Positions 261-64,000 of a stretch of DNA of 64,000 bases are shown here, in pieces. The notes beneath the pieces were generated by a model, which made no database searches, had not been told where the DNA came from, and was given only the letters and a program-made list of their open reading frames with translations. Both the position numbers and the translations under genes were made by a program. This stretch comes from Acidobacteriota bacterium (GTDB taxonomy: Bacteria > Acidobacteriota > UBA6911 > RPQK01 > JADFOI01): contig OY760074.1 of the NCBI GenBank assembly GCA_963663035.1, positions 256,001 to 320,000 on the forward strand, read 5' to 3'. How positions within the stretch are numbered: the stretch's first letter is position 1; every line of letters begins with the position of its first letter.

Positions 261-2435
261 ATGATTAGGCGGTATCTTGGTTTAGGCGTCATTCTGTTCA
301 GCTGGTCTGCGTCCTCTGGACTTGCTGCCCAGGACGGTGCGGTGGAAGGCTCCGCAGAAAAAGTCACCACGGCTCAACGGATCGACACCAAGCTTGTCAT
401 CGATGGCGAACTTGACGAACCCGAATGGGATCTTGTGGAACCTATCAGCGATTTTGTTCAACAGGACCCGAGCCCAGGCGAGGCCATAACCGAGCGAACC
501 GAGGTTCGAATTCTCTACGATGATGAATTTCTCTACTTCGGTATTTACTGCTTCGATTCAGAAGGTGAGGAAGGGATTCTTGTCACCAATTTGCAAAGAG
601 ATTTTCGTCCCTTGGACGGCGATGTGTTTAGCCTGCTTCTGGATACTTTCGATGACGATCGCAACGGATTTCTCTTGAGTACCAACCCCTTCGGAGCCAA
701 ACGCGACACCCAGGTCGGAGAGGACGGAAGGATGAGTAATGGGGATTGGGATGGGATCTGGCATGTCCAAAGCAAGATCACTGAAAGTGGCTGGCAAGCG
801 GAAATGGCGATCCCCTTTACGACCCTCCGCTTTCGGAATACAGAAGAGCAGGTCTGGGGTCTGAACCTCCAACGACGCATCCGTCGTAAGAATGAGAGTG
901 CCCACTGGGCTCCTATTCCACGCCAGTACAGAATCAGTCGCATCTCACGAGCCGGAAGACTGGAGGGTCTCAGCGGGATCCGGCCCGGCCGCAATCTGTA
1001 TGTCAAGCCCTATATCAGCATGCCGGTCACGCGTCGGCAGGATGACGACGTCGATTTTCTTCCCGATGCTGGATTGGACCTGAAGTATGGGCTGAGTTCC
1101 GAGTTGACCCTGGATTTGACGGCCAACACAGACTTCTCACAGGTGGAAGCCGATGATCAGCAGATCAACCTGACTCGATTCAGCCTCTTCTTTCCAGAGA
1201 AGCGGGACTTTTTTCTGGAAAATGCCTCAGCCTTCCAGTTTGGCCCGCCAGGTGGTGGGGGTCTCCTGGGTGGTTTTCGGGACTTGATTCCCTTTTTCAG
1301 CCGACGAATTGGACTTTCCCAGGGCAGTCTCGTTCCGATACTGGGAGGAGCCCGCATGACGGGGAAGGTCGGGGACTACACTGTGGGTCTCCTTTCCCTG
1401 CAGGACGATGATTTCGAGGGGACTCCCTCTACCAACTTCTCGGTGATGCGGGTGCGTCGAGATGTTCTCAGCAACTCATCGATGGGAGGAATTTTTGTCA
1501 ACAAACATGAACTGGACGGTGATTCCAATCGCACCTACGGAGCCGATGTCAATTTCAGCTTCTATAGGTTTCTGGATGTCTCCACTTTCCTACTCAAGAC
1601 CGACACTCCCGAATTCCAGGACAAGGATCTGGCCGGCTTTTTCAGGGCCGCCTGGAGAGGCCCGCTGCTGACGGTCCAGGCAGACCATCTCTCCATTCAA
1701 GAAAACTTCAACGCGGAAGTAGGCTTTATTCCCCGTAAAGACATCCGGAAAACAACGGGAACGTTTGGGATACGGCCGAGGCCCCGCGAGCGGATCCCCT
1801 GGATTCGTGAATTCGAACCCTCCATCTCCATGACCTATCTTACCGACCAGGAAAACGTCCTGCAGACGCGAACCATCAACGGTCGCTTCTCAGTCAGGTT
1901 TCAAAATGAGGAACTGATCTGGTTTGCTGCCCAGTCGCGGTTTGAGCTCTTGACTGAAGACTTCGACATCCGGAGCGATCAGATGATTCCCGCAGGAGGC
2001 TATCAGTTCAATGAGTACACACTTTCGCTCCAAAGTAATGCTAGCCGTATGTTCAGTGGGAGCTTCAGAGCGGTCACGGGAGATTTCTGGGACGGTGAGA
2101 AGGACTCCTATCGTTTCAGCTTTCGCTTTCAACCCATGCCCCAATTTCGATCAGAGATCACCTGGAGCCACGACGATGTCAGGCTGCCCTCAGGGGATTT
2201 TGACACCGAGCTGGTCACCACTCGTCTGAACTATAGCTTCAACCCCAGCATGTTTCTCAATGCCCTGATCCAGTACAACAGCGATCGGAAGGAGCTCCGC
2301 AGCAATATTCGTTTCAATTTGATTCACAAGCCACTGAGCGACTTTTTCCTGGTCTACAACGAGCGGAGATCTTCAACGGGAGACGTAGCGGAACGAGCAC
2401 TCATTGCCAAGGTGACCTACGTCATTGGCCTCTAG
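261..2435 (+). CDS. CBM9-like (DOMON-like) plus DUF5916 domain protein, secreted or outer membrane
   Basis: Signal peptide after ATG 261 with GAGGGAG upstream; motifs IDGELDEPEW, NTDFSQVEAD, NLTRFSLFFPEKRDFFLE; paralog of the genes at 53.9-64 kb. Confidence 0.8.
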   Translation: MIRRYLGLGVILFSWSASSGLAAQDGAVEGSAEKVTTAQRIDTKLVIDGELDEPEWDLVEPISDFVQQDPSPGEAITERTEVRILYDDEFLYFGIYCFDSEGEEGILVTNLQRDFRPLDGDVFSLLLDTFDDDRNGFLLSTNPFGAKRDTQVGEDGRMSNGDWDGIWHVQSKITESGWQAEMAIPFTTLRFRNTEEQVWGLNLQRRIRRKNESAHWAPIPRQYRISRISRAGRLEGLSGIRPGRNLYVKPYISMPVTRRQDDDVDFLPDAGLDLKYGLSSELTLDLTANTDFSQVEADDQQINLTRFSLFFPEKRDFFLENASAFQFGPPGGGGLLGGFRDLIPFFSRRIGLSQGSLVPILGGARMTGKVGDYTVGLLSLQDDDFEGTPSTNFSVMRVRRDVLSNSSMGGIFVNKHELDGDSNRTYGADVNFSFYRFLDVSTFLLKTDTPEFQDKDLAGFFRAAWRGPLLTVQADHLSIQENFNAEVGFIPRKDIRKTTGTFGIRPRPRERIPWIREFEPSISMTYLTDQENVLQTRTINGRFSVRFQNEELIWFAAQSRFELLTEDFDIRSDQMIPAGGYQFNEYTLSLQSNASRMFSGSFRAVTGDFWDGEKDSYRFSFRFQPMPQFRSEITWSHDDVRLPSGDFDTELVTTRLNYSFNPSMFLNALIQYNSDRKELRSNIRFNLIHKPLSDFFLVYNERRSSTGDVAERALIAKVTYVIGL

Positions 2436-2656: not shown

Positions 2657-4360
2657 ATGAAAATGAAGTTATCGGTTGGACTTTTGGCTACCTTGATGGG
2701 GCTGTTGTTGTCTCAGTCCGGGCTTGCCCAGCGGCAACCCGATCCTAATGCAATGTTCGAGCGACTGGACCAGAACAGGGATGGGGTCTTGACACAGGAC
2801 GAGCTTCCCGAGCAGCGCCAGGAATTTTTCGATCTGATGCTGCAAAGAGGAGACATCGACCAGGACGGTCGGCTCACCCAGGAAGAATTCACCGCCAGCC
2901 TGAGCGATGCAAGCGGACGTCCCCAGTTCGGCGGCAGGTCTCAACGGGGACGGGGCGGCGGTCAACCTCGCCCCATGAGGAGGCAGGGCAGGGCTCCCGA
3001 AGAGATATTCGAGCAGCTCGACAGCAACGGGGATGGCACAATCACGGCAGACGAAGTGCCCGAGCAGGCGCAGAGGATTCTGCAGATGGACCGCGATGGT
3101 GACGGCGTGATTACCAGGGAGGAGATCTCTCAAGGCCCTCCCGGTGGCCGCTTTGGACAGCCCCCAGGTATGGCTCCCGGTGGCCCGGGAGAACGAGCTG
3201 AAAGGATGTTCGAGGAGTTGGACAGCAATGGCGACGGACGGGTGACCAAGGAAGAAGTACCCGACAGGATGGAGCAGTTCCTGGAGCGCTTTGACCGCGA
3301 TGGGGACGGCATGGTCACCGAGGATGAAGTCTCCGGCCAACCTTTCCAGGGATCAGGACCCGCGGTCGGTCAATCTTTGCCCGACCTCCGAGTCTATGAC
3401 GCCCAGGGCAGGGAATTCCAGTTGAGCAGCCTGAAGGGGAACTATTCGGTTTTGGTTTTCGGCTGCCTCACCTGACCGCCCTTCTTACGAAACGTCTCCA
3501 GTTTGGAGACTATCTACCGCGATTACGCACCTCAAGGTGTCAACTTTTACTATATCTATAAAACTCTTGCTCATCCTGAGCTGGACGGCTACATCGAGCC
3601 GTTTACGCTCGAGGAGCGGCTGATGCACGTTAAGGAAGCCCAGCGGACACTGGGGAGCGAGATCACCTGGATCAGTGATTCCATGTCCAATGATTTGAGG
3701 CACGCCTTGGGTGATTCGCCCAACTCAGAGTTTGTGGTCGATCCGGCGGGCAAGATAGTGCGTTTGCGCGCCTGGAGTCGACCCGACGAGCTGCGTAAAG
3801 ATCTGGAGCAGCTTGTGGGGCCGGTGGAAAATCCCACCAGGGTGTCCGATCTCAACCTGAAAGTCGAGGCTCCCCCAAAGGTGGCGGCCTCGGGCGTGGT
3901 GCCACGAGTGAGGGTTCCCGGCAGGATGTTGACGGTCAGGATCGAGCCGAAGCCGAGTTCACAGCCCTATTACATGAAGCTGCGAGCTGAAGTGGATCAG
4001 CAGTTTCTGCGGGACGGTGAAGGGACTCTGTATGTTGGCTTTCATCCGGATCCCCTCTACCATGTGCACTGGAATAATTTGGTGGATCCGGTGAAGTATC
4101 AAATCACCACACCTGATGGAGTCACCGTGTCGCCGGCAGCGGGTGAAGGTCCCAAGGTGGAGGAAGCATCGGATATCGATCCGCGTGAGTTCTTAATAGA
4201 TATCAAGAAGACCGGGGATTCCCAGGATCCGTTGCAATTGGCCGTGCGTTATTTTGCCTGCAATGACGAGGAAGGCTGGTGTATAGCAGTCTCGCAAGAG
4301 TACGCGATTTATCTGGAGCCGGATCGCGACGCCGGCAGGACCTTCCGTCGAGGACGGTAA
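2657..4360 (+). CDS. Predicted selenoprotein (567 aa, Sec273): signal peptide, 6 EF-hands, deiodinase-like thioredoxin fold (CLTU), DsbD-alpha-like C-terminal domain
   Basis: ORFs 2657-3475 and 3503-4360 are in one frame with only TGA 3473-3475 between them; read-through gives VLVFGCLT-U-PPFLRN, like deiodinase FGSCTUPPF; downstream YIYKTLAHPELDGY; SECIS-like hairpin. Confidence 0.85.
3494..3510 (+). promoter_or_regulatory. Bacterial SECIS-like hairpin
   Basis: GTCTCCA-GTT-TGGAGAC: 7-bp stem with a G-starting apical loop 25 nt after the in-frame UGA. Confidence 0.7.
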
Positions 4361-4395: not shown

Positions 4396-5388
4396 TTATG
4401 GAAGAACTTTGGCTCGGCCAAGCGTGTTTTTATCGGTCCCGAACCAGATTTCTCCAGAGGAGCTGTCAAACATCATATGGCGCACGGCGCCACCACCACT
4501 TGCAATCTTGGTGACGCTGAAAAACTCTCGTGTCGTCGGATCAAAGCCCACGAACTGGTTGGGATCAGGACCGGTTTCAACGAACCAGAGTCGGTCGCTC
4601 GAGTCCACCGCCATTCCGTAGGGTCTGGAATCAGATCCTCCCGGCGAGACCCATTCTTCCGCCTCCCCAGTGGTGGGGTCCAGATGGCCCAGGGAGCCTC
4701 GAGCATAATCGACATACCAGACCTGGTCATCGGAGGTTACCTGTAAACGGCGAGGGCGGGCATCTTCATTGGGCAAGGTGTACTCTCTCAGCTTCATGGT
4801 TTGCGGATCGACGGTGCCGATCTTGTTGGTTCCCACTTCGGCAATCCAGGGCTGGTTTTTGGAATCGATGACGATCCCATAGGGACGGGCACTGGGAGTT
4901 GTGACCCGAATGAGCTGAATCTCACCTGTGGCAGTGGTCCGCTTGCCGATGAAATTCCCTCCCTGGACGGTAAACCAAATGTCGCCGTTGCCATCAAACA
5001 CCATGGTGTGAGGATCCTTGGCCTCAGGATCGGGCATTGGGTATTTGGCAATTTCCCCGGTCTCAGGATCCAGCCTGCCAATGTGGGCGGCTCGGTTTCC
5101 CGAGTACCAAACATCGCCTTCCTTATCCACAATCACATTGTGCGGGCCGGTGCCGGGTGTCAGGTCAAATTTGGTGAATTCCCCGGTGCTGACATCAAAA
5201 TTCGCTACATAGTGTGATCGTTGTCCCACAAACCAGACCCGACCCTGGCTGTCGACGAATGGATCACGGGGCCGGCTGTCTTCCCATGGAACCTCCCACT
5301 CGAGGATCTCTATCTCCTTCGCGCTGAGATCCGCAACTCCTGCAACCCAAACCAAGCTCACCAGAAAAACTGTAGCCAGCTTCTTCAT
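4396..5388 (-). CDS. Secreted Vgb (virginiamycin B lyase)-like beta-propeller protein
   Basis: Signal peptide; repeated PxxIxxDxxGxVWF blades and IGRLDPxTGE motifs. Confidence 0.8.
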   Translation of the reverse strand: MKKLATVFLVSLVWVAGVADLSAKEIEILEWEVPWEDSRPRDPFVDSQGRVWFVGQRSHYVANFDVSTGEFTKFDLTPGTGPHNVIVDKEGDVWYSGNRAAHIGRLDPETGEIAKYPMPDPEAKDPHTMVFDGNGDIWFTVQGGNFIGKRTTATGEIQLIRVTTPSARPYGIVIDSKNQPWIAEVGTNKIGTVDPQTMKLREYTLPNEDARPRRLQVTSDDQVWYVDYARGSLGHLDPTTGEAEEWVSPGGSDSRPYGMAVDSSDRLWFVETGPDPNQFVGFDPTTREFFSVTKIASGGGAVRHMMFDSSSGEIWFGTDKNTLGRAKVLP

Positions 5389-24678: not shown

Positions 24679-24829
24679 TAGCCGGGATTATGCATAAATT
24701 TTCTACTGCAGTACCGCAATCATCCACGCTGACTGCGTTGTGCGACCCGCAAGCGGGTACCCCTCGCACGCCTTGTCATCGTGGCGCCTGCGGCACTTCG
24801 TCACGAAAACCTATGCATAATTCCGACTT
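24679..24829 (+). repeat. MITE-like element, family A copy 2
   Basis: Near-identical to 2432-2585; lies between convergent genes. Confidence 0.85.
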
Positions 24830-28009: not shown

Positions 28010-28525
28010 GTGTCGCTCTTCATTCAAGGAAGTATGAAAAGGAGTCTCCGAGCTCTTCACTGGCTGACAAGGGGTGCGGGATTTTTCCTGTTGGCCTTCG
28101 GTCTTCTTGCTTGTGGTTCCTCGGAGACCAGGGACACCATTGCTTTCCAACAGTACGACCCGGCTATTCTTTATCGCGCCAGGCAGGAAGGACGCCCCGT
28201 CCTTCTCGAGTTTTATGCAGAGTGGTGCATCCCCTGCCGAGAGCTCGAGGAGTTCACCTTCAACGATGGAGGGGTCATCACAGCCACCTGGCCATTTGTG
28301 AGGGTTCGGGTGGACATGACCGACTACGAGTCAGCGGAGTCCGAGCGTCTGCGAGAGCAATTTGGCGTGACCGGCGTCCCCGAGATTCACTTTCTGGATC
28401 CTCGAGGAGATGAAATTCAGGAGGCGCGCGTCATCGGGTTTCTTGGCCCTGAGGACTTTCTCCGACATGTCGAGCGCGCCCTGCAGCCGGGTCCCCGAAA
28501 AAACTTCCCTTCCGTTCCCGGTTAA
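28010..28525 (+). CDS. Thioredoxin-fold lipoprotein (DsbD-gamma-like)
   Basis: Lipobox LLAC; EFYAEWCIPC; GVTGVP cis-Pro motif; start may be ATG 28034. Confidence 0.85.
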   Translation: MSLFIQGSMKRSLRALHWLTRGAGFFLLAFGLLACGSSETRDTIAFQQYDPAILYRARQEGRPVLLEFYAEWCIPCRELEEFTFNDGGVITATWPFVRVRVDMTDYESAESERLREQFGVTGVPEIHFLDPRGDEIQEARVIGFLGPEDFLRHVERALQPGPRKNFPSVPG

Positions 28526-44714: not shown

Positions 44715-44892
44715 AGCCCGGACAATGCATTGGTTCTCGTCATGAAGCGGCGAAAGCGCCGGAAAACAGAGCCGTGGGCTAAAGCCTGCGGCTCCGACTG
44801 GCGCGCGAGGGGTACCCGGCTGCGGGTCGCGCAACGCCGGCAGGGCGGATGATTTCGCCGCTGCAGTAGAGAATTTATGCATAGTCCGGGCT
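44715..44892 (-). repeat. Family A element (reverse) carrying an inserted family B hairpin
   Basis: TIR agcccggacaatgcat...atgcatagtccgggct; B hairpin at 44767-44797. Confidence 0.8.
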
Positions 44893-47715: not shown

Positions 47716-47911
47716 AGCCGGGATTATGCATAGGTTTTCTACTGCAGTGCCGCAATCATCCACGCTCACTGCGTTGTGCTTCCTTGGGCTCCTCGGCGTA
47801 CTGCAAGAGTACGCCTGCGGGGCCCGACCCGTGGCGGGTACCCCTCGCACGCCTTGTCATCGCGGCGCCTGCGGCACTTCGTCACGAAAACTTATGCATA
47901 ACCCCGGCTAG
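47716..47911 (+). repeat. Family A element carrying an inserted family C hairpin
   Basis: Family A TIRs; 46-bp insert at 47780-47825; right CTA is the stop of the convergent gene. Confidence 0.85.
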
Positions 47912-53909: not shown

Positions 53910-56075
53910 CTAGAAGTCGAGCATGTAAGTGTACTTGAGAGTCAGGGATTTATCTGCTTCTCCATCCTGGAAAGCGTCTCGCTCTTCGTTGTAAACGATG
54001 AAGATATCACTCAGTGGACGGTGAATAAAATTGAAGCGAAGGTTCGAGCTCACCTGGCGCCGTTCACTGTTGTATTGGACAAAAGCGCTCAGAAACATCT
54101 GGGTGTTAAAGGAATAGTCCAGGCGCGTATTGACCAGTCGAGTGGTCACGTCGCCCTGGCTCAACTTCAGGTCGTCCCACTGAAATCTGCCCGATATAGT
54201 GAATTTGTAATGGGGTCTGTAGGAGAGGTTGATCTGCACGCCCTTGCGGGTCCCGCTCCAGAAGTCACCTGTCTGATATCGCACACTCCCGGACAGGGGA
54301 GCACTGGGATCGGAGCGATATTGGATGGAACTATCGTTGAAATGGTAATCTCCAGGATCAAGGTCTAACCCACCAATGCTGAACGGCGACTCTTCCCTCT
54401 CGAACCTGAGTGTCCGATCGAGCTGGAAGCTTCCTCCATCCTCAAAGCCGATCTGAAAGTTCAGATCAACGATCCGGGTCTCCAGGCGGCCCTCCTGGTC
54501 CTCGATGTATTGGATTCGGGTGTTGGGGTTAAACTCTCTGATCCAGGAAATGCTTTCTGGACGTGGAGTCCAGGCAAAGGAGCTATCGCTTTTTCGCATG
54601 TCCCGGCGGGGTACAAATCCCACCTCGGGATTGAAGTTCTCTTCAATATCCAGGTAGGCGGTGCGTGCTTGCCAAAGGTTGGTTCTCCACTCGACCCAGA
54701 CCCGGCTGGCCATGTCCTCGGTCTCCAGCCCCGGCGTTCTGGTGGCTGCCACAAAACCGCTCAGTCGAAATTGGTTCCAGAAATGGAAATTGGCATCCAC
54801 CCCGAAGGTACGATTGAAGTCCCCGGACTGATCCGCTTGCCGGTTAATGAACAAGGCTCCCAGCTCCGACTGACTCAGGATGTTCCTTTTGATACTCACC
54901 ACGGAGAAATTGTTGGCGGGATCGGAACCAAACTCCCGGGTCTGTATATTCAACAAGCCCAGGCTGGTTTTACCCACCCGGCCACTCAGGCGGGCTCCTG
55001 CCAGGATGGGCACCGGCTGTCTGTCAGAGGAAAGACCGATACGGCGGCTGAAGAAGGCAATGAAGTCGCGCGCACCCGGGCTGCGCCGGTCAACCTGACC
55101 AAAGAGAAAAAGACCGGAGTTCTCCAGGAAAAAATCGCGTTTTTCGGGGAAAAACAAGCTAAAACGAGTCAGGTTGATTTGCTGCTCATCGACTTCCACC
55201 TGCGAGAAGTCGGTGTTGACCGTGCCATCCAGGGTGAGACCAGAGGTGAGGCCGTATTTGAGATCCAGCCCGGCATCGCCCAGGGTGTCAAAATCATCTC
55301 CACTAAACTTACGGAACTCTGAACTCAGGTAGGGCTTTACTTTGAAGTTCCGGCCGGGCTCAACATTCTCAATGCCTTTCAAAGATCCGGCGAATGACAT
55401 ATTGAAACCGGAAAGACGACGAGGCATCGGACCCCAAAAGCTCTGCTCGTTCTTCCGCCGAATGCGCCTTTGCAGGTTGAGACCCCAGGTCTGTACCTTC
55501 GACTTTGGAAATCTTAACGACTTGAAAGGGATTCTGACCTCTGCAAACCATCCTTCATCTGAGATGGTTGTCTTGGCGTCCCACACACCTTCCCAGGAGA
55601 TGTCCTGGTCCCTTCCCTCATTGAAGGACTGCAGTTCCCTTTTGGCTCCGGCTGGGTTGATGTAAAAAGTGAAGGAGTTACGGTCATCATCAAAGGTGTC
55701 CAGGAAAAAAGAAACCGCATCAGTACTGTTCGGAGCAAAATCCTGCCTGAGGCTATTGATGATGAGTTTATCCACTTCTGACTCGTAAGCGGACAGTCCG
55801 AAATAAAGGGCTTCGTCATCATAGACGATCCGCACTTCCGTTTTTTCCGAGGCAGGCTCTCCTGAAACGGGTTCCCGCTGGATAAAATCGGTGGCGGGCT
55901 CGACTTCCGCCCAGATGGGCTCGTCCAGAACCCCGTCCAGCTGGATGGGCAAGTCCGTATGGTGGGCAAATACCTCCCTTTCCCGGAGCTCTTCCACAGA
56001 ACTCGCCTGTTGAGGAGCCTGTGCTGTCACCGGAAGGCACCCGAGAAGGAAAATCGCCAGGGTCAGTCTTTTCAC
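53910..56075 (-). CDS. CBM9-like plus DUF5916 protein (cluster copy 4)
   Basis: Signal peptide; same conserved motifs as 261-2435; terminal aromatic residue. Confidence 0.85.
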   Translation of the reverse strand: MKRLTLAIFLLGCLPVTAQAPQQASSVEELREREVFAHHTDLPIQLDGVLDEPIWAEVEPATDFIQREPVSGEPASEKTEVRIVYDDEALYFGLSAYESEVDKLIINSLRQDFAPNSTDAVSFFLDTFDDDRNSFTFYINPAGAKRELQSFNEGRDQDISWEGVWDAKTTISDEGWFAEVRIPFKSLRFPKSKVQTWGLNLQRRIRRKNEQSFWGPMPRRLSGFNMSFAGSLKGIENVEPGRNFKVKPYLSSEFRKFSGDDFDTLGDAGLDLKYGLTSGLTLDGTVNTDFSQVEVDEQQINLTRFSLFFPEKRDFFLENSGLFLFGQVDRRSPGARDFIAFFSRRIGLSSDRQPVPILAGARLSGRVGKTSLGLLNIQTREFGSDPANNFSVVSIKRNILSQSELGALFINRQADQSGDFNRTFGVDANFHFWNQFRLSGFVAATRTPGLETEDMASRVWVEWRTNLWQARTAYLDIEENFNPEVGFVPRRDMRKSDSSFAWTPRPESISWIREFNPNTRIQYIEDQEGRLETRIVDLNFQIGFEDGGSFQLDRTLRFEREESPFSIGGLDLDPGDYHFNDSSIQYRSDPSAPLSGSVRYQTGDFWSGTRKGVQINLSYRPHYKFTISGRFQWDDLKLSQGDVTTRLVNTRLDYSFNTQMFLSAFVQYNSERRQVSSNLRFNFIHRPLSDIFIVYNEERDAFQDGEADKSLTLKYTYMLDF

Positions 56076-56109
56076 GACACTGTAGCAGAAGCTTTATGCA
56101 TAGGGCGGG

Positions 56110-58301
56110 CTAAAAATCGAGCATGTAAGTGTACTTGAGAGTCAGGGATTTATCTGCTTCTCCATCCTGGAAAGCGTCTCGCTCTTCGTTGTAAACGATG
56201 AAGATATCACTCAGTGGACGGTGAATAAAATTGAAGCGAAGGTTCGAGCTCACCTGGCGCCGTTCACTGTTGTATTGGACAAAAGCGCTCAGAAACATTT
56301 GGGTGTTAAAGGAATAGTCCAGGCGCGTACTGACCAAGCGAGTGGTCACGTCGCCCTGGCTCAAGTTCAGGTCGTCCCATTGGAATCTGCCCGTTATATT
56401 GAACTTGTAATGGGGTATGTAGGTGAGGTTGATCTGCACGCCCTTGCGGGTGCCACTCCAGAAGTCACCTGTTTGATATCGCACACTTCCCGACAGGGTA
56501 GAACTGGGATTGGAGCGATATTGGATGGACCAATCGTTGAAATGGTAATCTCCAGGATCAAGGTCTAATCCACCAATTTCGAACGGCGTATCCTCTCTCT
56601 CGAACCTGAGGACACGACCCAGCTGGAAGACTCCTCCATCCTGAAAGTTGGTCTGAAAGGTCAAATTAACGAGTCGGGTCTCCAGGCGGCCTTCCTGGTC
56701 CTCGATGTACTGTATGCGGGCGTTGGGGTTCAACTGCCTGATCCAGGAAATGCTTCTGGGACGTGGAGTGAAGGCAAACGAGGTATCACTTTTTCGCATG
56801 TCGCGGCGGGGTACAAATCCCATCTCGGCGTTGAAGTTCTCTTCAATATCCAGGTAGCCGCTGCGTGCCTGCCAAAGATCGTTTCTCCACTCGACCCAGA
56901 ATCTGCTGGCCATGTCCTCGGTCTCCAGCCCGGGTGTTCTGGTGGCTGCCACAAAACCGCTCAGGCGGAGCTGGTTCCAGAAGTGGAAATTGGCATCCAC
57001 GCCGAAGGTGCGATTGAAGTCCCGGGACTGATCCGACTGCCGGTTCGCGAACATGACCCCCAGCTCCGACTGACTCAGAATGTTCCGTTTGATAGTCACC
57101 ACGGAGAAATTGTTGGCGGGATCGGACTGGAATTCCCGGGTCTGCATATTCATCAAGCCCAGGCTGGTTTTCCCCACCCGGCCACTCAGGCGGGCACCTC
57201 CCAGGATGGGTACTGGCTGGCCCGAGGAAAGACCGATACGGCGGCTGAAGAAGGGGATGAAGTCGCGCGAACCCGGGGCGCGCCGGTCAATCTGACCAAG
57301 AAGAAAAATACCGGAGTTCTCCAGGAAAAAGTCGCGTTTCTCGGGGAAAAACAAGCTAAAACGGGTCAGATTAATTTGCTGCTGATCGACCTCCACCTGC
57401 GAGAAGTCTGTGTTGAGGGTGGCATCCAGGGTGAGATTGGAGGTGAGGCCGTACTTGAGATCCAGCCCGACATCGCTCAGGGTGTCAAAATCATCTCCGG
57501 TAAATTTTCGGAACTCTGTACTCAGGTAGGGCTTAACCTTGAAGTTCCGTCCGGGTTCAACATCCTCAATCCCTCTTAAGGTTCCAGCGTAAGACATATA
57601 CCACACGGTAAAACGGCGAGGATGCGGACCCCAAAAGCTCTGCTCGTTTTTCCGTCGAATGCGCCTTTGCAGGTTGAGGCCCCAGGTTTGCACCTTCGAT
57701 CTTGGAAATCTCAACGATTTGAAAGGGATTCTGACCTCTGCAAACCATCCTTCTTCTGTGATGGTCGTCTCGACGTCCCACACAACTTCCCAGGCGGGGT
57801 TCTCATCCCTTCCTTCATCGAAGACCTGCGTTTCCTTTTGGCTCCGACTGGGTTGATGTAAAACCCGAACGAGTTGCGGTCATCATTGAAGGTGTCTATG
57901 TAAAAGGAGACCCCATCGTCATTGCGTATAGGAAAATCCTGCTTGAGGCTATTGATGATAAGTTTTCCCGGCTCGGGGTCGAAAGCCCACACCCCAAAAT
58001 AGAGGGCTTCGTCATCATAGATGATCCGCATCTCCGTTTTTTCCGTGGCAGGCGCTCCTGCAACAGGCTCCCGCTGGATAAAATCGGTGGCGGGCTCAAC
58101 TTCCGCCCAGATCGGCTCGTCCAGGATGCCGTCCAGAGTGATGGGCATGTCCGTATGGCGGGCAGATATCTCCCGGTCCCAGGGCTCTTCCACAGAACGC
58201 ACCTCTTGAAGACCCAGTGCTGTTACCGGCAGGCACCCCAGAAGGATAAAGGTCAGGGACCATTTGTTCACGACACCTCCGGTTCTTCGTTTTACTGTCA
58301 T
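56110..58301 (-). pseudogene. CBM9-like plus DUF5916 protein (cluster copy 3), one frameshift near 57834
   Basis: Adding one G restores GAKRETQVFDEGRDENPAWEVVWD, collinear with paralogs; may be a sequencing error. Confidence 0.75.
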
Positions 58302-58372
58302 CGTCTATTGGCTGAGATTCTAATCTCAGCACCTGAAAAAGTCGAATGACAACCCGAATGGCTACAGGCTAG

Positions 58373-58522
58373 AGTCGGGATTATCCATAGGTTCTCGTCA
58401 CGAAGCGGCGAAAACGCCGGTCTGACAAGGCGCGCTAGGGGTACCCGCTTGCGGGTCGCGGAACGCTGGCAGGGCGGATGGTTTCGTCGCTGCAGTAGAG
58501 AACTTATGGATTATCCCGACTA
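58373..58522 (-). repeat. Family A element (reverse, diverged)
   Basis: TIR agtcgggattatccata...tatggattatcccgact; interior homologous to copy 1; right CTA is the CNT gene stop. Confidence 0.85.
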
Positions 58523-59824
58523 AAGTCCCAGGATTCCCTGCTGGCCGTGGTAGAAGAGTCCGGCCAGGGCCCCTGTCATCAAGGTGGCTAGGGTGGAGCC
58601 TGCCAGCGCTGGAAGGGCCAGGGCAGCCAGATCAGTTCTGCGAGAGGGGACCAAGGCGGAGATGCCTCCCACAAAGATCCCCATCGAGGCCAGGTGGGAA
58701 AAGCCGCACAGGGCGTAGGAGAGGACCAGCAGAGTCCTGGGTGAGACCGCCTGAGCGGAGGCCATCTCTCCCAGCTGCTGGTAGGACACGACCTCGGTCA
58801 GGATGATTCGTTGACCCAGGAGCTGGGAAGCCTGCTGGAGGTCGGCCCCGGACAGGCCCAGCAGCCAGGCCAGCGGCGTAAACAGCCAGCCCAAAATCAA
58901 TTCAACAGTGAGGGGCTCTCCCAGCCAACCGGCAAGTGGCGAGGCCAGATTGGCCAAGACCAGATTCATCACACCCACCAGCCCCAGAACCGTAATCAGA
59001 AGGGTGGCAATGCCAGCGGCCAACTTCAGACCATCCCAGGAACCCGCACTCAGTGCGGCCATGGTGTTGCCGGTGCGCTTGGACTCGGCCATGGCGGGAA
59101 GGGAACCCAGAGTTTCCGGCTGGCCCGTCTCCGGAAGGATCAGCTTGGAGACCAGGACGGCCGCTGGAATCGACATGACCGAGGCCGAGATGAGATGTCC
59201 GGCAATCTGGGGAAAGGCGTCGCTGAGGAAGAAGACGTACAGGGCAAGCGTGGTCGAAGCTACCGTAGACATGCCACAGGTGAGGAGCAGGAGAAGCTCC
59301 GAACGAGTCATGCCGGCCAGATAGGGCAGAATGGTGGTGGCGGATTCGATGCCCACGAAAATGTTGGCCGATCCGGCCAACGCCTCCGCTCCTGACAACC
59401 TCAGCGTGTTCTTGAAGAAACGCCCGAACAGGCGAATCACCGGTTGGATCAGTCCCAGGTGGTAGCAGGCTGCCATCAGTGCAGCGAAGAAGATGACCGC
59501 CGGCAGGACCTGAGCTGCCAGTATGAATCCCACCGAAGGTTCTCCGGCTGCGGTGCTCTCACCCGGGTTCAGGGCCAGCGGCCCGAAAATGAACTCAGCC
59601 CCCTCACGAGCCGCTCCCAGCAAGGCCACCACCAGGTTGTTCAGACTCAACAGAACCAAGCGGGTGGGCGGCAGCAGAAAGACGACAGTGCCCAGAGCCA
59701 GCATCAACAGGCCCGAGCCCATCACGGTCCGCCAGGCCACCGGCCGCCGGAGCCCGCCCACAGCCCAAGCCAGGCCGCCCAGCACAAACAGCCCCAAAAG
59801 AGAGATCAGGTTTAAGGAGGTCAT
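58520..59824 (-). CDS. CNT/NupC-family nucleoside transporter
   Basis: QVLPAVIFF, SGAE...ANIFVG, HLISASVMS.PA, YALCGF. Confidence 0.9.
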   Translation of the reverse strand: MTSLNLISLLGLFVLGGLAWAVGGLRRPVAWRTVMGSGLLMLALGTVVFLLPPTRLVLLSLNNLVVALLGAAREGAEFIFGPLALNPGESTAAGEPSVGFILAAQVLPAVIFFAALMAACYHLGLIQPVIRLFGRFFKNTLRLSGAEALAGSANIFVGIESATTILPYLAGMTRSELLLLLTCGMSTVASTTLALYVFFLSDAFPQIAGHLISASVMSIPAAVLVSKLILPETGQPETLGSLPAMAESKRTGNTMAALSAGSWDGLKLAAGIATLLITVLGLVGVMNLVLANLASPLAGWLGEPLTVELILGWLFTPLAWLLGLSGADLQQASQLLGQRIILTEVVSYQQLGEMASAQAVSPRTLLVLSYALCGFSHLASMGIFVGGISALVPSRRTDLAALALPALAGSTLATLMTGALAGLFYHGQQGILGL

Positions 59825-59844
59825 GACCGCCGGAATAGGACCGA

Positions 59845-62076
59845 TTAAAAGTCAAACATGTGGGTGTATTTGAGAGTCAAGGATTTATCCGCTTCACCTT
59901 CCTGGAAACTGTCTCGCTGCTCGTTGTAAACAATGAAGATATCACTCAAGGGACGGTGAATCAGGTTGAAGCGGAGGTTTGAGCTGACTTGACGCCGCTC
60001 ACTGTTATATTGGATGAAGGCACTCAAAAACATCTGGGTGTTAAAGGAGTAGTCTATACGCGTCGTGACCAATCGAGTGGTCGTGTTCCCCGGGCCGAGC
60101 TTCAGTTCGTCCCACCGAAATCCGCCTGTGGCAGTGAATTTGTAATGAGGTTTCAGGGTGAGGTTGAACTGCCAACCTTGGCGTGTTCCATCCCAGAAGT
60201 CACCCGTCTGGTATCGAACACGTCCTGAGAAGCGAGCACTGGGATTGGAGCTAAATTGGGTGAACCAGCTGTTGAAATGGTAGTCTCCAGGATCAAGGTC
60301 TAACCCACCAATGGAGAACTGCTCATCCTCCCTTTCAAACCTGAGGGTCCGACCCACCTGGAAAGCTCCTCCGTCATCCAACTCGGTCTGAAAGGTCATA
60401 TCAATGATTCGGGTTACCAGGCGGTCCTCCTGATCCTTGATGTACTGCACCCGGGCGTTGGGGAAAAATTCCCGAACCCAGGAAATGCTTCTGGGACGTG
60501 GAGTCAAGCCAAAAGAGGTATCACTCTTTTGCATGTCGCGGCGGGGTACAAAGCCTACTTCAGCCCTGAAATTCTCTTCTATATCCAGTAATCCGGTGCG
60601 CGCTTGCCAGAGATCGGTTTTCCACTCGACCCAGATCCGGCTTGCCATCTCCCCGGTGTCCAACCCCGGCGAACGGGTGGCCGCCAGGAAGGTACTGATG
60701 AGCAACTTGTCCCAGAAGTGGAGGTTGGCATCCACACCGAAAGTGCGATTGAAATCCCCCGACTGGTCCGCTTGTCGGTTAATGAACAAGGCCCCGATCT
60801 GCGACTGAGCCAGGATGTTTCTCTTGACACTCACCACGGTGAAGTTGTTGGCGGGATCGGAACTAAACTCCCGGGTCTGCATATTCAAGACGCCCAGGCT
60901 GTACTCCCCGGCACGGCCACTCAGGCGAGCACCTGCCACAATGGGCACTGGCCGGCTGTCAGAGGAAAGACCGATACGGCGGCTGAAAAAAGCAAGGAAG
61001 TCGCGCGCACCCGGGGCGCGCCGGTCAATCTGACCAAAGGCAAAAAGACCGGAGTTCTCCAGAAAAAAGTCGCGTTTCTCCGGGAAAAACAAACTGAAAC
61101 GCGTCAGGTTAATTTGCTGCTGATCAACCTCAACCTGCGAGAAGTCGGTGTTGACCGTGGCATCCAGCGTGAGACCGGAGGTGACGCTGTATTTGAGATC
61201 CAGCCCAGGATCGAACAGAGTGTCAAAGTCATCTCCGGAAAACTTCCGAAACTCTGAGCTCAGGTAGGGCTTAACCTTGAAGTTCCGGCCGGGCTGGACA
61301 TCCTCAATGCCTTTCAAATCTCCGGCGTAAGAGAAAGTAAATGCGTTAGCACGACGCGGTATCGGACTCCAATAGGCTTGCTCGTTCTTCCGCCGAACGC
61401 GTCTTTGGAAGTTCAGGCCCCAGGTTTGTACCTTCGATCTTGGGAATCGTAGTGATTTGAATGGAACTCTGATCTCGGCAAACCATCCTTCTTCCGTGAT
61501 TTGGGTCTCAACGTCCCACACAGTTTCCCAGGAGATGTCATTGAACCGTCCCTCATCGAAGAACTGCGTGTCCTTTTTAGCTCCTGCCGGGTTGATGTAA
61601 AAGCCGAAGCCGTTACGGTCATCATTAAAGGTGTCTAGGTAAACAGAGGCCCCATCCTCCTGGGTATGGGCGAAATCCTGTTTGAGGGTGTTAATGACGA
61701 GATTTTCCGGTTGGCTGTCCCAAGCGGACACTCCAAAGTAAATGGCTTCCTCATCGTATAAGATCCTTATTTCAGTCGGCTCCGAAGCAGGCTCCCCTTC
61801 CATAGGTTCCCGTTGGGTAAAGTCGGTGGCGGGCTCTGCTTCCGCCCAGGCCGGCTCGTCCAGAACACCGTCCAGTGTGATGGGTTGGTTCGTATGGTGG
61901 GCAAAGACTTCCTTTTTCTGGGACTCATTCTCAGGACTCGCTTGTGGGGGATCCTGTGCCGCTGCCGGCAGGGACAGGAAAAGCACCATCACAAAAGTCC
62001 ATCTGTGCCAAAGAGACCGAACTCTCAGTTGAATGGTCATAAGCTTCCTAGTGGAATGGCCATCTACAGGACGCAT
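59845..62076 (-). CDS. CBM9-like plus DUF5916 protein (cluster copy 2)
   Basis: Signal peptide; conserved DUF5916 motifs; start uncertain. Confidence 0.85.
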   Translation of the reverse strand: MRPVDGHSTRKLMTIQLRVRSLWHRWTFVMVLFLSLPAAAQDPPQASPENESQKKEVFAHHTNQPITLDGVLDEPAWAEAEPATDFTQREPMEGEPASEPTEIRILYDEEAIYFGVSAWDSQPENLVINTLKQDFAHTQEDGASVYLDTFNDDRNGFGFYINPAGAKKDTQFFDEGRFNDISWETVWDVETQITEEGWFAEIRVPFKSLRFPRSKVQTWGLNFQRRVRRKNEQAYWSPIPRRANAFTFSYAGDLKGIEDVQPGRNFKVKPYLSSEFRKFSGDDFDTLFDPGLDLKYSVTSGLTLDATVNTDFSQVEVDQQQINLTRFSLFFPEKRDFFLENSGLFAFGQIDRRAPGARDFLAFFSRRIGLSSDSRPVPIVAGARLSGRAGEYSLGVLNMQTREFSSDPANNFTVVSVKRNILAQSQIGALFINRQADQSGDFNRTFGVDANLHFWDKLLISTFLAATRSPGLDTGEMASRIWVEWKTDLWQARTGLLDIEENFRAEVGFVPRRDMQKSDTSFGLTPRPRSISWVREFFPNARVQYIKDQEDRLVTRIIDMTFQTELDDGGAFQVGRTLRFEREDEQFSIGGLDLDPGDYHFNSWFTQFSSNPSARFSGRVRYQTGDFWDGTRQGWQFNLTLKPHYKFTATGGFRWDELKLGPGNTTTRLVTTRIDYSFNTQMFLSAFIQYNSERRQVSSNLRFNLIHRPLSDIFIVYNEQRDSFQEGEADKSLTLKYTHMFDF

Positions 62077-64000
62077 TAAAACATGTCGAACATATGAGTA
62101 TATTTGAAAGTCAAAGATTTATCCGCTTCACCTGCCTGGAAACTGTCTCGCTCTTCGTTGTAGACGATGAAGATATCACTCAGGGGACGGTGAATCAGGT
62201 TAAAGCGAAGGTTTGAGCTGACCTGGCGCCGCTCACTGTTATATTGAACAAATGCACTCACAAACATCTGGGTGTTAAAGGCGTACTCCAGACGCGTATT
62301 GATCAATCGACTGGTCAAATTCCCTTGTTGGAGCTTCAGGTCGTCCCACTGAAATCTGCCGCTAGCCGTCAATTTGTAATTGGGTTTAAAAGACAGGCTG
62401 AGCCGGACGCCCTTGCTGGAGCCATCCCAGAAGTCACCCGTTTCATAGCGCACGCTTCCCGAGATCCGATCACTGGTATCGGAGCGAAATTCGGTGAACC
62501 AACGATTGAAGTTGTAGTCTCCAGAAGCAATCTCTTGCCCACCAATGAAAAACTGCTCATCCTCCCTCTCAAACCTGAGTGTCCGACCCACCTGGAAGCT
62601 TCCTCCATCCTCCAAACTGATTTGGAATTTCAAATCAGTAATCCTGGTGACCAGGCGGCCTTCCTGGTCGTTGATGTACTGCAGCTGGGCATTGGGGAAA
62701 AATTCCCGAATCCAGGAAATACTTCTGGGACGGGGACGCAATCCAACGAATGCAGTGCCCTTCCGAATATCGCGGCGGGGTACGAATCCCACTTCAGCGT
62801 TAAAGTTCTCCCCAACATCCAAATAATCGGTACGTGCCTCCCAAAGATTGGTCTTCCATTCGACCCAGGTCCGGCCGGCCATATCGCCTGTCTCGAAGCC
62901 TGGGGTTCTGGTCGCTGCCAGAAAAGAAGTGATACGCAGATTTTGCCAGAAACGAAAGCTGGCATCCACACCGAAGGTGCGATTGTAGTCGCCCGACTGA
63001 TCCGACTGTCGGTTGATGACCAAGGTCCCCAGCTCCGACTGAGCCAGAATGTTTCGTTTCAGACGGAGCACGGTAAAGTTATGGGCGGGCTCAGGATCGG
63101 ATTCTCGGGTCTGCATATTGAAAAGACCCAGACTGTAGTCACCCACTCGACCGGTGAAGCGGGCTCCTGCTAAAACGGGCACAGGCTGTCCATCAGAAGA
63201 GAGACCAATGCGGCGGCTGAAGAAGGGGATAAAGTCGCGAGTACTGGGCCCTGATCGGTCCGTTTGAGCAAAGAGGAAAATGCCGCTGTTTTCCAGGAAA
63301 AAGTCACGCTTCTCCGGGAAAAACAGGCTAAAGCGAGTCAGGTTAATTTGCTGTTCATCCACTTCCACCTGCGAGAAGTCGGTATTCAGGGTGGCATCCA
63401 GGGTGAGACCAGAAGTCAGGCTATATTTGAGATCCAGCCCAGGATCGAAAAGGGTGTCAAAATCATCTCCAGAAAACTTCCGAAATTGTGAGGTCAAATA
63501 GGGCTTGACCTTGAAGTTCCGACCAGGATGGACATCCTCAACACCTCTTAGTGTTCCGGCGAAGGAGACATTAAAAGAGGCAAAACTGCGAGGGATGGGA
63601 GCCCAAAAGCTCTGCTCGGACCTCCGCCGAATGCGCCTTTGGAAATTGATGCCCCAGCTTTGCACCCTCGATTCTGAAAATCTTAACGATTTGAAAGGGA
63701 TTCTGACTTCCGCAAACCATCCTTCTTCTGTGACTTTTGTCTTGGCCCCGTCTCGATTCACTTAACGGATTCTGACTTCAAACCATCCTTCTTCTGTGAC
63801 TTTTGTCTTGGCGTCCCACACGGTTTCCCAGGCGGGATTTTCATTCCTGCCTTGATCGACAGACTGGACGTCGCGTTTGGCTCCGGCTGGGTTGATGTAA
63901 AAGCCGAACGCGTTGCGGTCATCATTGAAGGTGTCCAGATAAATTGAGAATCCATCATTCTCTCGAATGGCGAAGTCTTCCTTCAAACTGTTGATGATGA
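62076..64000 (-). pseudogene. CBM9-like plus DUF5916 protein (cluster copy 1, 5'-truncated by the window), interrupted by a 66-bp insertion containing TAA
   Basis: ORFs 62076-63761 and 63762-63986 share one frame; removing 63747-63812 restores WDAKTKVTEEGWFAEVR. Confidence 0.7.

Follow-up and report, generated by a model that had tools for sequence, protein, structure and literature searches.

A gene located at positions 2657-4360 of the plus strand was analyzed within a 64,000-nucleotide stretch of the genome of an Acidobacteriota bacterium (assembly GCA_963663035.1, contig OY760074.1, positions 256,001-320,000; hereafter the window). The gene forms a single open reading frame (ORF) of 567 amino acids (aa) once selenocysteine (Sec, U273) is assigned to the TGA at 3473-3475, the only recoded codon; under translation table 11 it is broken into pieces of 272 and 285 aa. 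Its product belongs to a real, widespread and apparently unnamed variant of the bacterial deiodinase-like selenoproteins, with a fused domain resembling the N-terminal (alpha) domain of DsbD (nDsbD). Sequence comparison indicates that the conserved unit consists of a thioredoxin domain of the deiodinase type and an immunoglobulin (Ig)-like C-terminal domain, the EF-hands being optional. The assignment of Sec273 as the nucleophile of a deiodinase-type fold, with a dithiol-bearing nDsbD-like domain packing on its omega loop, was supported by sequence analysis and by structural models, as was a fixed two-domain core, and a relay of electrons from the C-terminal Cys pair to Sec is plausible.

A patterned scan of GTDB species genomes resulted in 489 pattern matches and 463 confirmed relatives, the best 80 of which were analyzed; these loci are the closest relatives of the window gene, and the uniformity of Sec among them is not a family-wide count. 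TGA occupied the catalytic site in all of them (80/80), within the motif GCL[TS]UP[PR]F. Downstream of the UGA, a hairpin (3494-3510, plus strand; -10.0 kcal/mol, z -4.48) with a 7-bp stem and a GUU loop 25 nt past the UGA agreed with the consensus for the bacterial selenocysteine insertion sequence (bSECIS), that is, a loop of 3-9 nt containing a G, placed 16-37 nt past the UGA, with a minimum free energy <= -7.5 (PMC13188914; here and below, citations refer to the parts of each paper that were covered). Among 81 sequences, the first loop position was invariably G and the third base of codon +8 invariably C (81/81 each), codon +9 was restricted to AGT, AGG or GGT, spanning Ser, Arg and Gly, and codon +11 was GAG in 81/81 against a background of 0.58, with both synonyms in use at the invariant D, K and H codons close by. 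Since few compensatory changes were observed in the stem, and a C-A mismatch was present in 50/81 sequences, the support for the bSECIS comes from invariance, not covariation; an Rfam scan of the window gave no match. A true stop codon or a sequencing error was ruled out by the sharing of the TGA in 80/80 loci together with the codon-level constraint of the bSECIS and, on these sequence grounds, TGA273 is a selenocysteine codon.

Cys orthologues were present among more distant relatives (30 copies, and 62 proteins from a second search), including forms from the named Planctomycetota Rhodopirellula, Novipirellula, Rosistilla and Rubripirellula. The 30 copies are representatives picked by a GCLTC-type motif and, together with the 80 Sec loci, constitute the 110 sequences on which the residue counts given below are based. 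Regarding the Sec machinery, no selA, selB, selC or selD was detected among the 43 other window ORFs scanned, nor any Sel gene in a Pfam search of 101 neighbours (20 of 25 multi-transmembrane proteins plus 81 others from the 143 nearest), where a neighbour with an AIRS domain was considered as SelD and rejected, being HypE. No tRNA was found within the window, and no tRNA-Sec in the 60 of 80 loci scanned.

The catalytic domain (aa 233-389; 3353-3823, plus strand) was assigned to the thioredoxin fold, deiodinase type, based on Pfam, an AlphaFold2 model and fold matches. Pfam AhpC-TSA was above its cutoff (E 8e-9) and T4_deiodinase below it (E 1.7e-5; PF00837, 21-24.7 bits with a gathering threshold of 27), the latter being passed by some Cys relatives (e.g. 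P0143, 31.2 bits). The best NCBIfam model, NF038285, scored 101.9 bits with a cutoff of 250, and 33-82 bits on 10 of 10 Cys relatives. The model of aa 233-567 (predicted local distance difference test, pLDDT, 89.8; predicted template modelling score 0.86) matched TlpA/ResA-type thioredoxins (Z 17.7-18.0) as well as mouse Dio3 (4tr4; Z 17.5, root-mean-square deviation [rmsd] 2.2, 156 residues), which was among the longest structural alignments and also the best PDB sequence match (E 7.4e-7). The top Foldseek match for the whole core, DipZ of M. tuberculosis, was rejected as an architecture match (rmsd ~14 A, TM 0.38).

Similar to the deiodinases, the domain combines a thioredoxin fold carrying an omega-loop insertion (T-L-A-H-P...E-R, aa 303-321; 3563-3619, plus strand) with Sec and with the equivalents of Dio3 Thr169 (T/S272, 110/110), Tyr197 (Y301, 109/110) and His202 (H306, 110/110). 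By contrast, two residues of known importance are replaced: the position of Dio3 Ser167 is held by Cys270 (3464-3466), a candidate resolving Cys, in 110/110 sequences, and that of Glu200 by Leu304, Leu in 110/110. In the deiodinases, Glu200 anchors the omega loop of Dio3, Glu200Thr inactivates Dio3, Glu-to-Ala changes inactivate human Dio1-3, and Ser167Ala lowers activity by >90% (PMC7506546), while the side chain of His174 is dispensable in DIO1 and the oxidised Sec of deiodinase 1 is resolved by a proximal Cys (PMC9141512). Because Glu200 is Leu and Ser167 is Cys, iodothyronine-type chemistry is doubtful. In alignments with ResA and TlpA, U273 corresponded to the first Cys of CxxC and F276 to the second, a position held by Phe in 80/80 Sec loci and by Phe, Tyr or Ser in 30/30 Cys variants. 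The domain (U-P-P-F) thus lacks the +3 resolving Cys of the CxxC-bearing disulfide reductases TlpA, ResA and cDsbD, and C270-L-T-U273, literally a CxxU, is not a pair equivalent to CxxC in the thioredoxin register. The position of the proline in the L-P-T-T-F segment of ResA, the cis-Pro on which disulfide reductases depend, was Asn356 in 109/110 sequences. Given the U273/F276 register and the replacement of the ResA proline by Asn356, the domain looks like a terminal catalyst rather than a classical dithiol reductase.

The C-terminal domain (aa 424-560; 3926-4336, plus strand) was predicted, when folded alone, as an Ig-like beta-sandwich of high confidence (pLDDT 96.7), resembling nDsbD and the C-terminal domain (CTD) of SOQ1, in which C535 and C542 flank the last beta-hairpin as defined by DSSP (FACNDEEGWC, Cys535-x6-Cys542; 4259-4282). 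This pair was conserved in nearly all sequences covering the site (C535 in 109/109, C542 in 108/109), and its pattern was present in 57 of the 62 further Cys proteins; by reading, two of the other five have the pair and three end earlier. The Cys spacing varied from x4 to x6 and longer. Within the YHVHWNN segment (aa 468-474; 4058-4078), the invariant part is W-N-N (W472, N473 and N474 in 110/110), whereas H471 occurred in 77/80 Sec and 23/30 Cys sequences. PF11412 was the sole family matched by more than one member (26/44 at E <= 0.1, best 1.3e-6), and a precomputed PF11412 label was found on 6 of 120 homologues. Fold matches included the SOQ1 CTD (7djl; Z 7.7, rmsd 3.1, 99 residues), DsbD-alpha (Z 6.6-7.0; 1jpe, 6.8) and ScsB-alpha (6c29; Z 6.3). 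A Foldseek search with the domain returned nothing at E <= 0.001, and one PDB sequence-profile search returned EF-hand proteins only. An Ig-like sandwich with a Cys pair in its last hairpin is the arrangement of nDsbD, the Z-scores themselves not being specific among Ig folds; the domain is probably nDsbD-like, based on the Pfam signal and the position of the Cys pair.

In order to describe the contact between the two domains, a complex model was obtained for the Cys orthologue P0058, with the domains supplied separately and a custom alignment. The model scored 0.69, versus 0.00 for the best of three controls; the score mark was reached by 116/157 solved and 2/215 mismatched pairs, counts that hold roughly for this set-up. 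Contact agreement between runs was at least 94% and partner pLDDT at least 87, and a likeness to solved thioredoxin-nDsbD complexes is possible. In window numbering, the modelled interface comprised the omega loop (303-316) and E320 on one side, and K441, R443, H463-L467, P509 and 557-561 on the other. Conservation was higher at the interface positions than elsewhere (0.78, n=35, vs. 0.62, n=292; p 2e-4), in a comparison where the model had seen a similar alignment. Judging by strand order, D465, P509 and the Cys hairpin would share one end of the sandwich.

The N-terminal part of the protein starts with a probable cleavable signal peptide (aa 1-24; 2657-2728, plus strand), with a Sec-pathway-type K-rich n-region, hydrophobic h-region and GLA|Q site as judged by inspection; a crude hydropathy test detected a hydrophobic N-terminal stretch in 72 of the 75 relatives whose 5' end is intact. 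It is followed, on the same strand, by a first pair of EF-hands (loops at aa 38 and 66; 2768-2887), a linker with 24/32 G/P/R/Q residues (2903-2998), pair 2 (aa 122 and 145; 3020-3124), a G/P-rich linker with 18/23 such residues (3128-3196) and pair 3 (aa 189 and 213; 3221-3328). Pfam EF-hand_1 matched six stretches (E 2.9e-25), and all 6/6 loops fitted D-x-[DN]-x-D-G-x-h-T-x-x-E with flanking helices, constituting putative calcium sites; shuffling of aa 25-232 produced one match in 2 of 1000 shuffles, and never more. The lanmodulin model NF053806 reached 48.8 bits with a cutoff of 135, which leaves the protein outside that family. An earlier note, made from the letters of the window alone, had recognized the signal peptide, the six canonical loops in three pairs, the G/P/R-rich linkers, a Sec-containing thioredoxin/deiodinase-like domain and the YHVHWNN and FACNDEEGWC segments of a C-terminal beta domain, all of which were borne out, the catalytic domain by the recoding and the Dio3 fold match. 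Likewise, the conservation of the C-terminal Cys residues, on which that note had made its view of the domain depend, was confirmed by the counts given above.

A survey of domain co-occurrence, also proposed there, was carried out on 73 complete loci (seven of the 80, incomplete or frameshifted, were left out) and revealed a constant two-domain core with variable EF-hands. EF-hands were present in 52/73 loci, differing in number and position: they lay at the C-terminus in 44, at the N-terminus in six and at both ends in two, and 21 loci had none. In a quick tree from which L035 was left out, the N-terminal-only forms among Sec loci, including the window protein, made up a seven-member clade (Shimodaira-Hasegawa-like approximate likelihood-ratio test, 99); N-terminal EF-hands were also found in 37/62 of the Cys proteins from the second search. 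From this distribution, the six EF-hands appear to be the least essential part of the protein, with an accessory role. Hosts of the 80 loci were labelled in the database as Acidobacteriota, Planctomycetota, Latescibacterota, Poribacteria, Verrucomicrobiota and Krumholzibacteriia, many of their genomes being marine metagenome-assembled genomes (MAGs), and the nearest loci came from Acidobacteria MAGs (86-87% identity). The family is frequent among little-studied bacteria of marine and soil habitats. The catalytic motif was missing from 118 of the 120 best protein-database matches, whose predicted starts lie downstream of it, and genes of the family are usually mis-annotated as two broken genes.

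Other variations of the architecture were observed among the relatives. Passenger domains (arylsulfotransferase, YHYH, Lcl_C, DUF3179, beta-helix and esterase) were detected on long relatives in a scan of 21 proteins, DUF3179 being itself a tabulated selenoprotein family (PMC13188914); duplicates or passengers were carried by P0124, with a tandem duplicate of the two-domain core, and by P0130, P0140, P0229, P0230, P0256, P0270, P0148 and P0126. A C-terminal tail of 100-160 aa was frequent in EF-less members (L006, L007, L009-L011, L013, L015, L016, L018, L020, L022, L024, L026, L028, L030, L036, L047, L056 and L074), and the tails of 14 of them showed no clear Pfam family, with weak CusF and DUF6152 rows only. 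The MAG isolate name B4D1T1 was shared by two paralogous loci, L001 and L055, one with six and the other with two N-terminal EF-hands (loci grouped with this observation: L001:1760-2731, L055, L004, L021 and L058). The close relative L035 (5515-6078 and 6001-6996) was apparently frameshifted, with the EF-hands in a separate frame and a core frame that ends early, due either to a sequencing error or to a pseudogene.

The reading favoured here, held tentatively and with its catalytic steps all derived indirectly, is that of an exported two-domain selenoenzyme in which Sec273 reduces a small extracytoplasmic oxidant and is recycled by the fused domain. The selenolate would reduce an oxidant or electrophile, likeliest a peroxide or a hypohalite-derived species and not iodothyronine; the oxidised Sec273 would form a selenenyl-sulfide with Cys270, to be re-reduced by the C535/C542 dithiol in the usual direction of DsbD, whose alpha domain reduces clients of the thioredoxin fold; and the resulting C535-C542 disulfide would be recharged by a separately encoded system of the DsbD-gamma/CcdA type. 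The EF-hands would be accessory, putatively calcium-binding appendages and not a gate. In known systems, nDsbD and ScsB-alpha act as electron donors to exported proteins of the thioredoxin fold, with a peroxide pathway among these routes, and the clients of ScsB comprise TlpA and the periplasmic peroxiredoxin PprX (PMC3322552). A stand-alone, apparently exported DsbD-gamma-like thioredoxin (WCIPC) is encoded in the window at 28010-28525 (plus strand), with best NCBIfam matches to TsoB (119 bits) and DsbD (91.5 bits), in each case to the C-terminal part and below cutoff; that it might serve as electron donor to the DsbD-alpha-like domain is speculative.

Several observations weigh against this proposal. 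The PF11412 score of the window domain (23.3-23.7 bits, E 5e-5) stayed under the cutoff of 25, unrelated Ig folds (adaptin-ear and BBSome) reached Z 8.0-8.7, above the values for nDsbD, and a profile search of PDB sequences with the C-terminal domain gave 0 matches at E 10. In the complex model, both the catalytic residue and C535/C542 lay outside the confidently named interface residues. The peroxiredoxin motif PxxxTxxC/U was missing, the sequence being VFGCLTUPPF, and no DsbD-beta or CcdA gene was found among the 101 neighbours scanned. Moreover, a peroxiredoxin-like client of ScsB, PrxL, is reported without peroxidase activity (PMC3322552), and electrons in SOQ1 flow from the thioredoxin domain to the CTD, that is, in the opposite direction (bioRxiv 2024.11.01.621559). 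These points also bear on the relay from a DsbD-like Cys pair to a CxxU centre that the earlier note had put forward: the conserved packing of the domains speaks for it, and the position of both centres relative to the named interface, as well as the direction of SOQ1, against it. The DsbD-alpha likeness held as regards the Ig-like fold and the repeated weak PF11412 signal, with Z-scores no better than those of unrelated Ig folds, and the CxxU proved correct to the letter, with U273 at the first-Cys position and no CxxC equivalent. The description of the relay as self-contained was too strong, as an external source of electrons would still be needed.

The absence of the Cys pair from the named interface, formed by the omega loop and Ig residues, is what would be expected if C535-C542 were a structural bond, the Ig domain acting as a lid that clamps the omega loop and shapes the pocket while Sec is recycled by an outside reductant. 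Such a lid would replace the loop anchor Glu200, Leu in 110/110 sequences, and the variable Cys spacing (x4 to x6 and longer) points the same way, as does the fact that hairpin disulfides are common in exported proteins; on the other hand, the pair sits in the very hairpin that holds the redox Cys of nDsbD and SOQ1, and PF11412 was the sole repeated family match (26/44); this explanation is considered rather unlikely. Electron flow could instead follow SOQ1, with the Sec/Cys270 centre taking electrons from a membrane carrier and passing them to the C-terminal dithiol, which would reduce envelope disulfides or methionine sulfoxide. The SOQ1 CTD was the best redox-relevant fold match (Z 7.7); the aligned range ends at residue 143 of the model and 1024 of the chain, from which, by offset, C542 would correspond to C1012; and SOQ1 combines thioredoxin-to-CTD transfer with methionine sulfoxide reductase activity (bioRxiv 2024.11.01.621559). 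However, SOQ1 and cDsbD have a true CxxC where the second Cys is here Phe, Tyr or Ser, the NHL propeller is missing, and the conserved deiodinase loop suggests a substrate site of its own, and the SOQ1-like direction is regarded as unlikely.

Reductive dehalogenation of natural haloaromatics (iodo- or bromo-tyrosines, bromophenols), in which Sec would abstract the halogen and the fused dithiol would recycle it, accords with mouse Dio3 as best PDB sequence match, with the retained equivalents of Thr169, Tyr197 and His202, and with the marine labels of many host MAGs. It is nevertheless judged improbable, given that Glu200 and Ser167, needed in deiodinases, are Leu and Cys here, that the PF00837 and NF038285 cutoffs were not reached, and that no dehalogenation gene context was seen among the scanned neighbours; for the reductive dehalogenase suggested in the earlier note, deiodinase-type chemistry is doubtful because Glu200 and Ser167 are replaced. 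A broader idea is that of a widespread, so far overlooked class of exported bacterial selenoenzymes in which the remodelled Cys270/Sec273 site, with Glu200 lost, and the DsbD-alpha-like dithiol work as a single redox unit, removing halogenated oxidants and organohalogens outside the cytoplasm by detoxification or dehalogenation; it is held to be equally improbable. Finally, the note had envisaged gating by calcium or another metal, and a calcium- or lanthanide-gated switch, with the relay under the control of the EF-hands, could be read from the six canonical loops and from the presence of EF-hands in 52/73 complete loci. Calcium gating was disfavoured because most relatives either have no EF-hands (21/73) or carry them at the opposite end, with varying position and number. 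In addition, low-complexity linkers connect the EF-hands, Sec loci that have them at the N-terminus alone make up a single small clade, EF-less members often bear another kind of tail (100-160 aa), and the lanmodulin score (48.8) was far from 135. Taken together, metal control appears highly improbable. None of these alternatives was preferred over the reduction of a small oxidant by Sec273 with recycling by the fused dithiol.

With respect to known systems, the protein shares with the bacterial deiodinase-like selenoproteins (PF00837; NF038285) an FGxxTUPPF-type motif, the AHP loop, Sec and EF-hands, and differs from them in the Cys at -3 instead of Ser, the Leu instead of Glu200 and the added nDsbD-like domain. 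From DIO1-3, with which it has in common the fold, the Sec position and the Thr, Tyr and His residues, it is distinguished by Cys for Ser167, Leu for Cys168 and Leu for Glu200, by the lack of a His at the His219 position, and by the signal peptide and extra domains. DsbD-alpha and ScsB-alpha are likewise Ig-like sandwiches whose last hairpin holds a Cys pair, but the window domain is not attached to a membrane beta domain, lies under the curated cutoff, and adds an N-terminal strand, a short helix, the invariant WNN and D-x-[DE]-P-R-E-F. Arabidopsis SOQ1 and human NHLRC2 also carry, within a single chain, a thioredoxin-like domain and an nDsbD-like CTD whose hairpin contains a Cys pair (fold matches to SOQ1: CTD, Z 7.7; thioredoxin domain, Z 15.2), and interdomain electron transfer has been demonstrated for SOQ1 (bioRxiv 2024.11.01.621559; bioRxiv 2021.03.16.435614). 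In contrast to their arrangement (thioredoxin domain with CCINC, NHL propeller and CTD), the present protein is bacterial, soluble and Sec-containing, has no CxxC, and its catalytic and C-terminal domains are ~34 aa apart with no NHL domain between them.

Fusions of a peroxiredoxin-like selenoprotein with U/CxxC to Pfam11412, as well as of deiodinase-like proteins to EF-hands, the latter with an additional conserved Cys, were already tabulated without function in PMC9402790, and the deiodinase-like/EF-hand entry may include the present family. The former fusions also combine a thioredoxin-fold selenoprotein with a PF11412 domain, and differ in that the domain here is of the deiodinase type, with U-P-P-F and an upstream Cys; ESM Atlas clusters of AhpC-TSA with DsbD_N (scores 0.83-0.88) are leads only. 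An exported EF-hand/deiodinase-like read in the 2008 Global Ocean Sampling supplement retains the Glu and has no C-terminal domain (PMC2398784), and "CLTUP" and "HWNN" had 0 occurrences in four supplementary files of that paper. In the parts covered of the table of 119 selenoprotein families in PMC13188914, there was one deiodinase-like entry (UxxC) and none with the present architecture; deiodinase, DsbD and EF-hand were unmentioned in the covered text of PMC12013277 and, by term search, of PMC13326102. Literature searches, with most subscription papers outside their scope, returned no paper on the full domain combination, and one on lanmodulin returned no paper. The earlier note knew of no characterised protein with this combination; its pairwise fusions are in print (PMC9402790), with no function given.

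Regarding the gene neighbourhood, clustering of 531 ORFs (80 loci plus window positions 1-12 kb) resulted in no neighbour family shared by more than 12 loci, and no promoter or terminator was found upstream of the gene. A convergent gene for an exported beta-propeller of the Vgb-lyase family (4396-5388, minus strand) adjoins the selenoprotein gene also in L001 and L002, and lies nearby in L035; this adjacency probably reflects synteny among close relatives, and SOQ1 and NHLRC2 hold a propeller between the same domain types. Five DUF5916 genes with a CBM9-like N-terminus are located in the window (261-2435 and 53910-63761), four of which form a cluster around the gene for a nucleoside transporter, and in L053 and L060 a similar gene precedes that of the selenoprotein. 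In addition, an intergenic element of ~150 bp, bounded at its termini by inverted repeats of 26 nt (92% complementary) and resembling repetitive extragenic palindromes or miniature inverted-repeat transposable elements, was present at 2432-2585, 24681-24827 and 47717-47908, while positions 44876 and 58374 each had a single arm (eight occurrences of the arm vs. 0.01 expected).

The cited literature, in the parts covered, gives bacterial deiodinase-like selenoproteins no function, and how deiodinases are recycled physiologically is described as unclarified (PMC9141512); a candidate reductant domain fused to the catalytic one bears on how a deiodinase-type Sec gets recycled. Since the protein is soluble and Cys versions exist in named Planctomycetota, function and recycling can be tested without Sec expression. 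The family also represents a blind spot of annotation, with 463 confirmed loci in genomes and yet 118/120 best protein matches starting past the catalytic motif. Its architecture would be the second, after SOQ1/NHLRC2, to combine a thioredoxin fold with an nDsbD-like domain in the absence of the DsbD membrane domain. If the idea of a halogen-detoxifying machine were true, bacterial deiodinase-like proteins would gain their first biochemical function, and Sec recycling a built-in answer.

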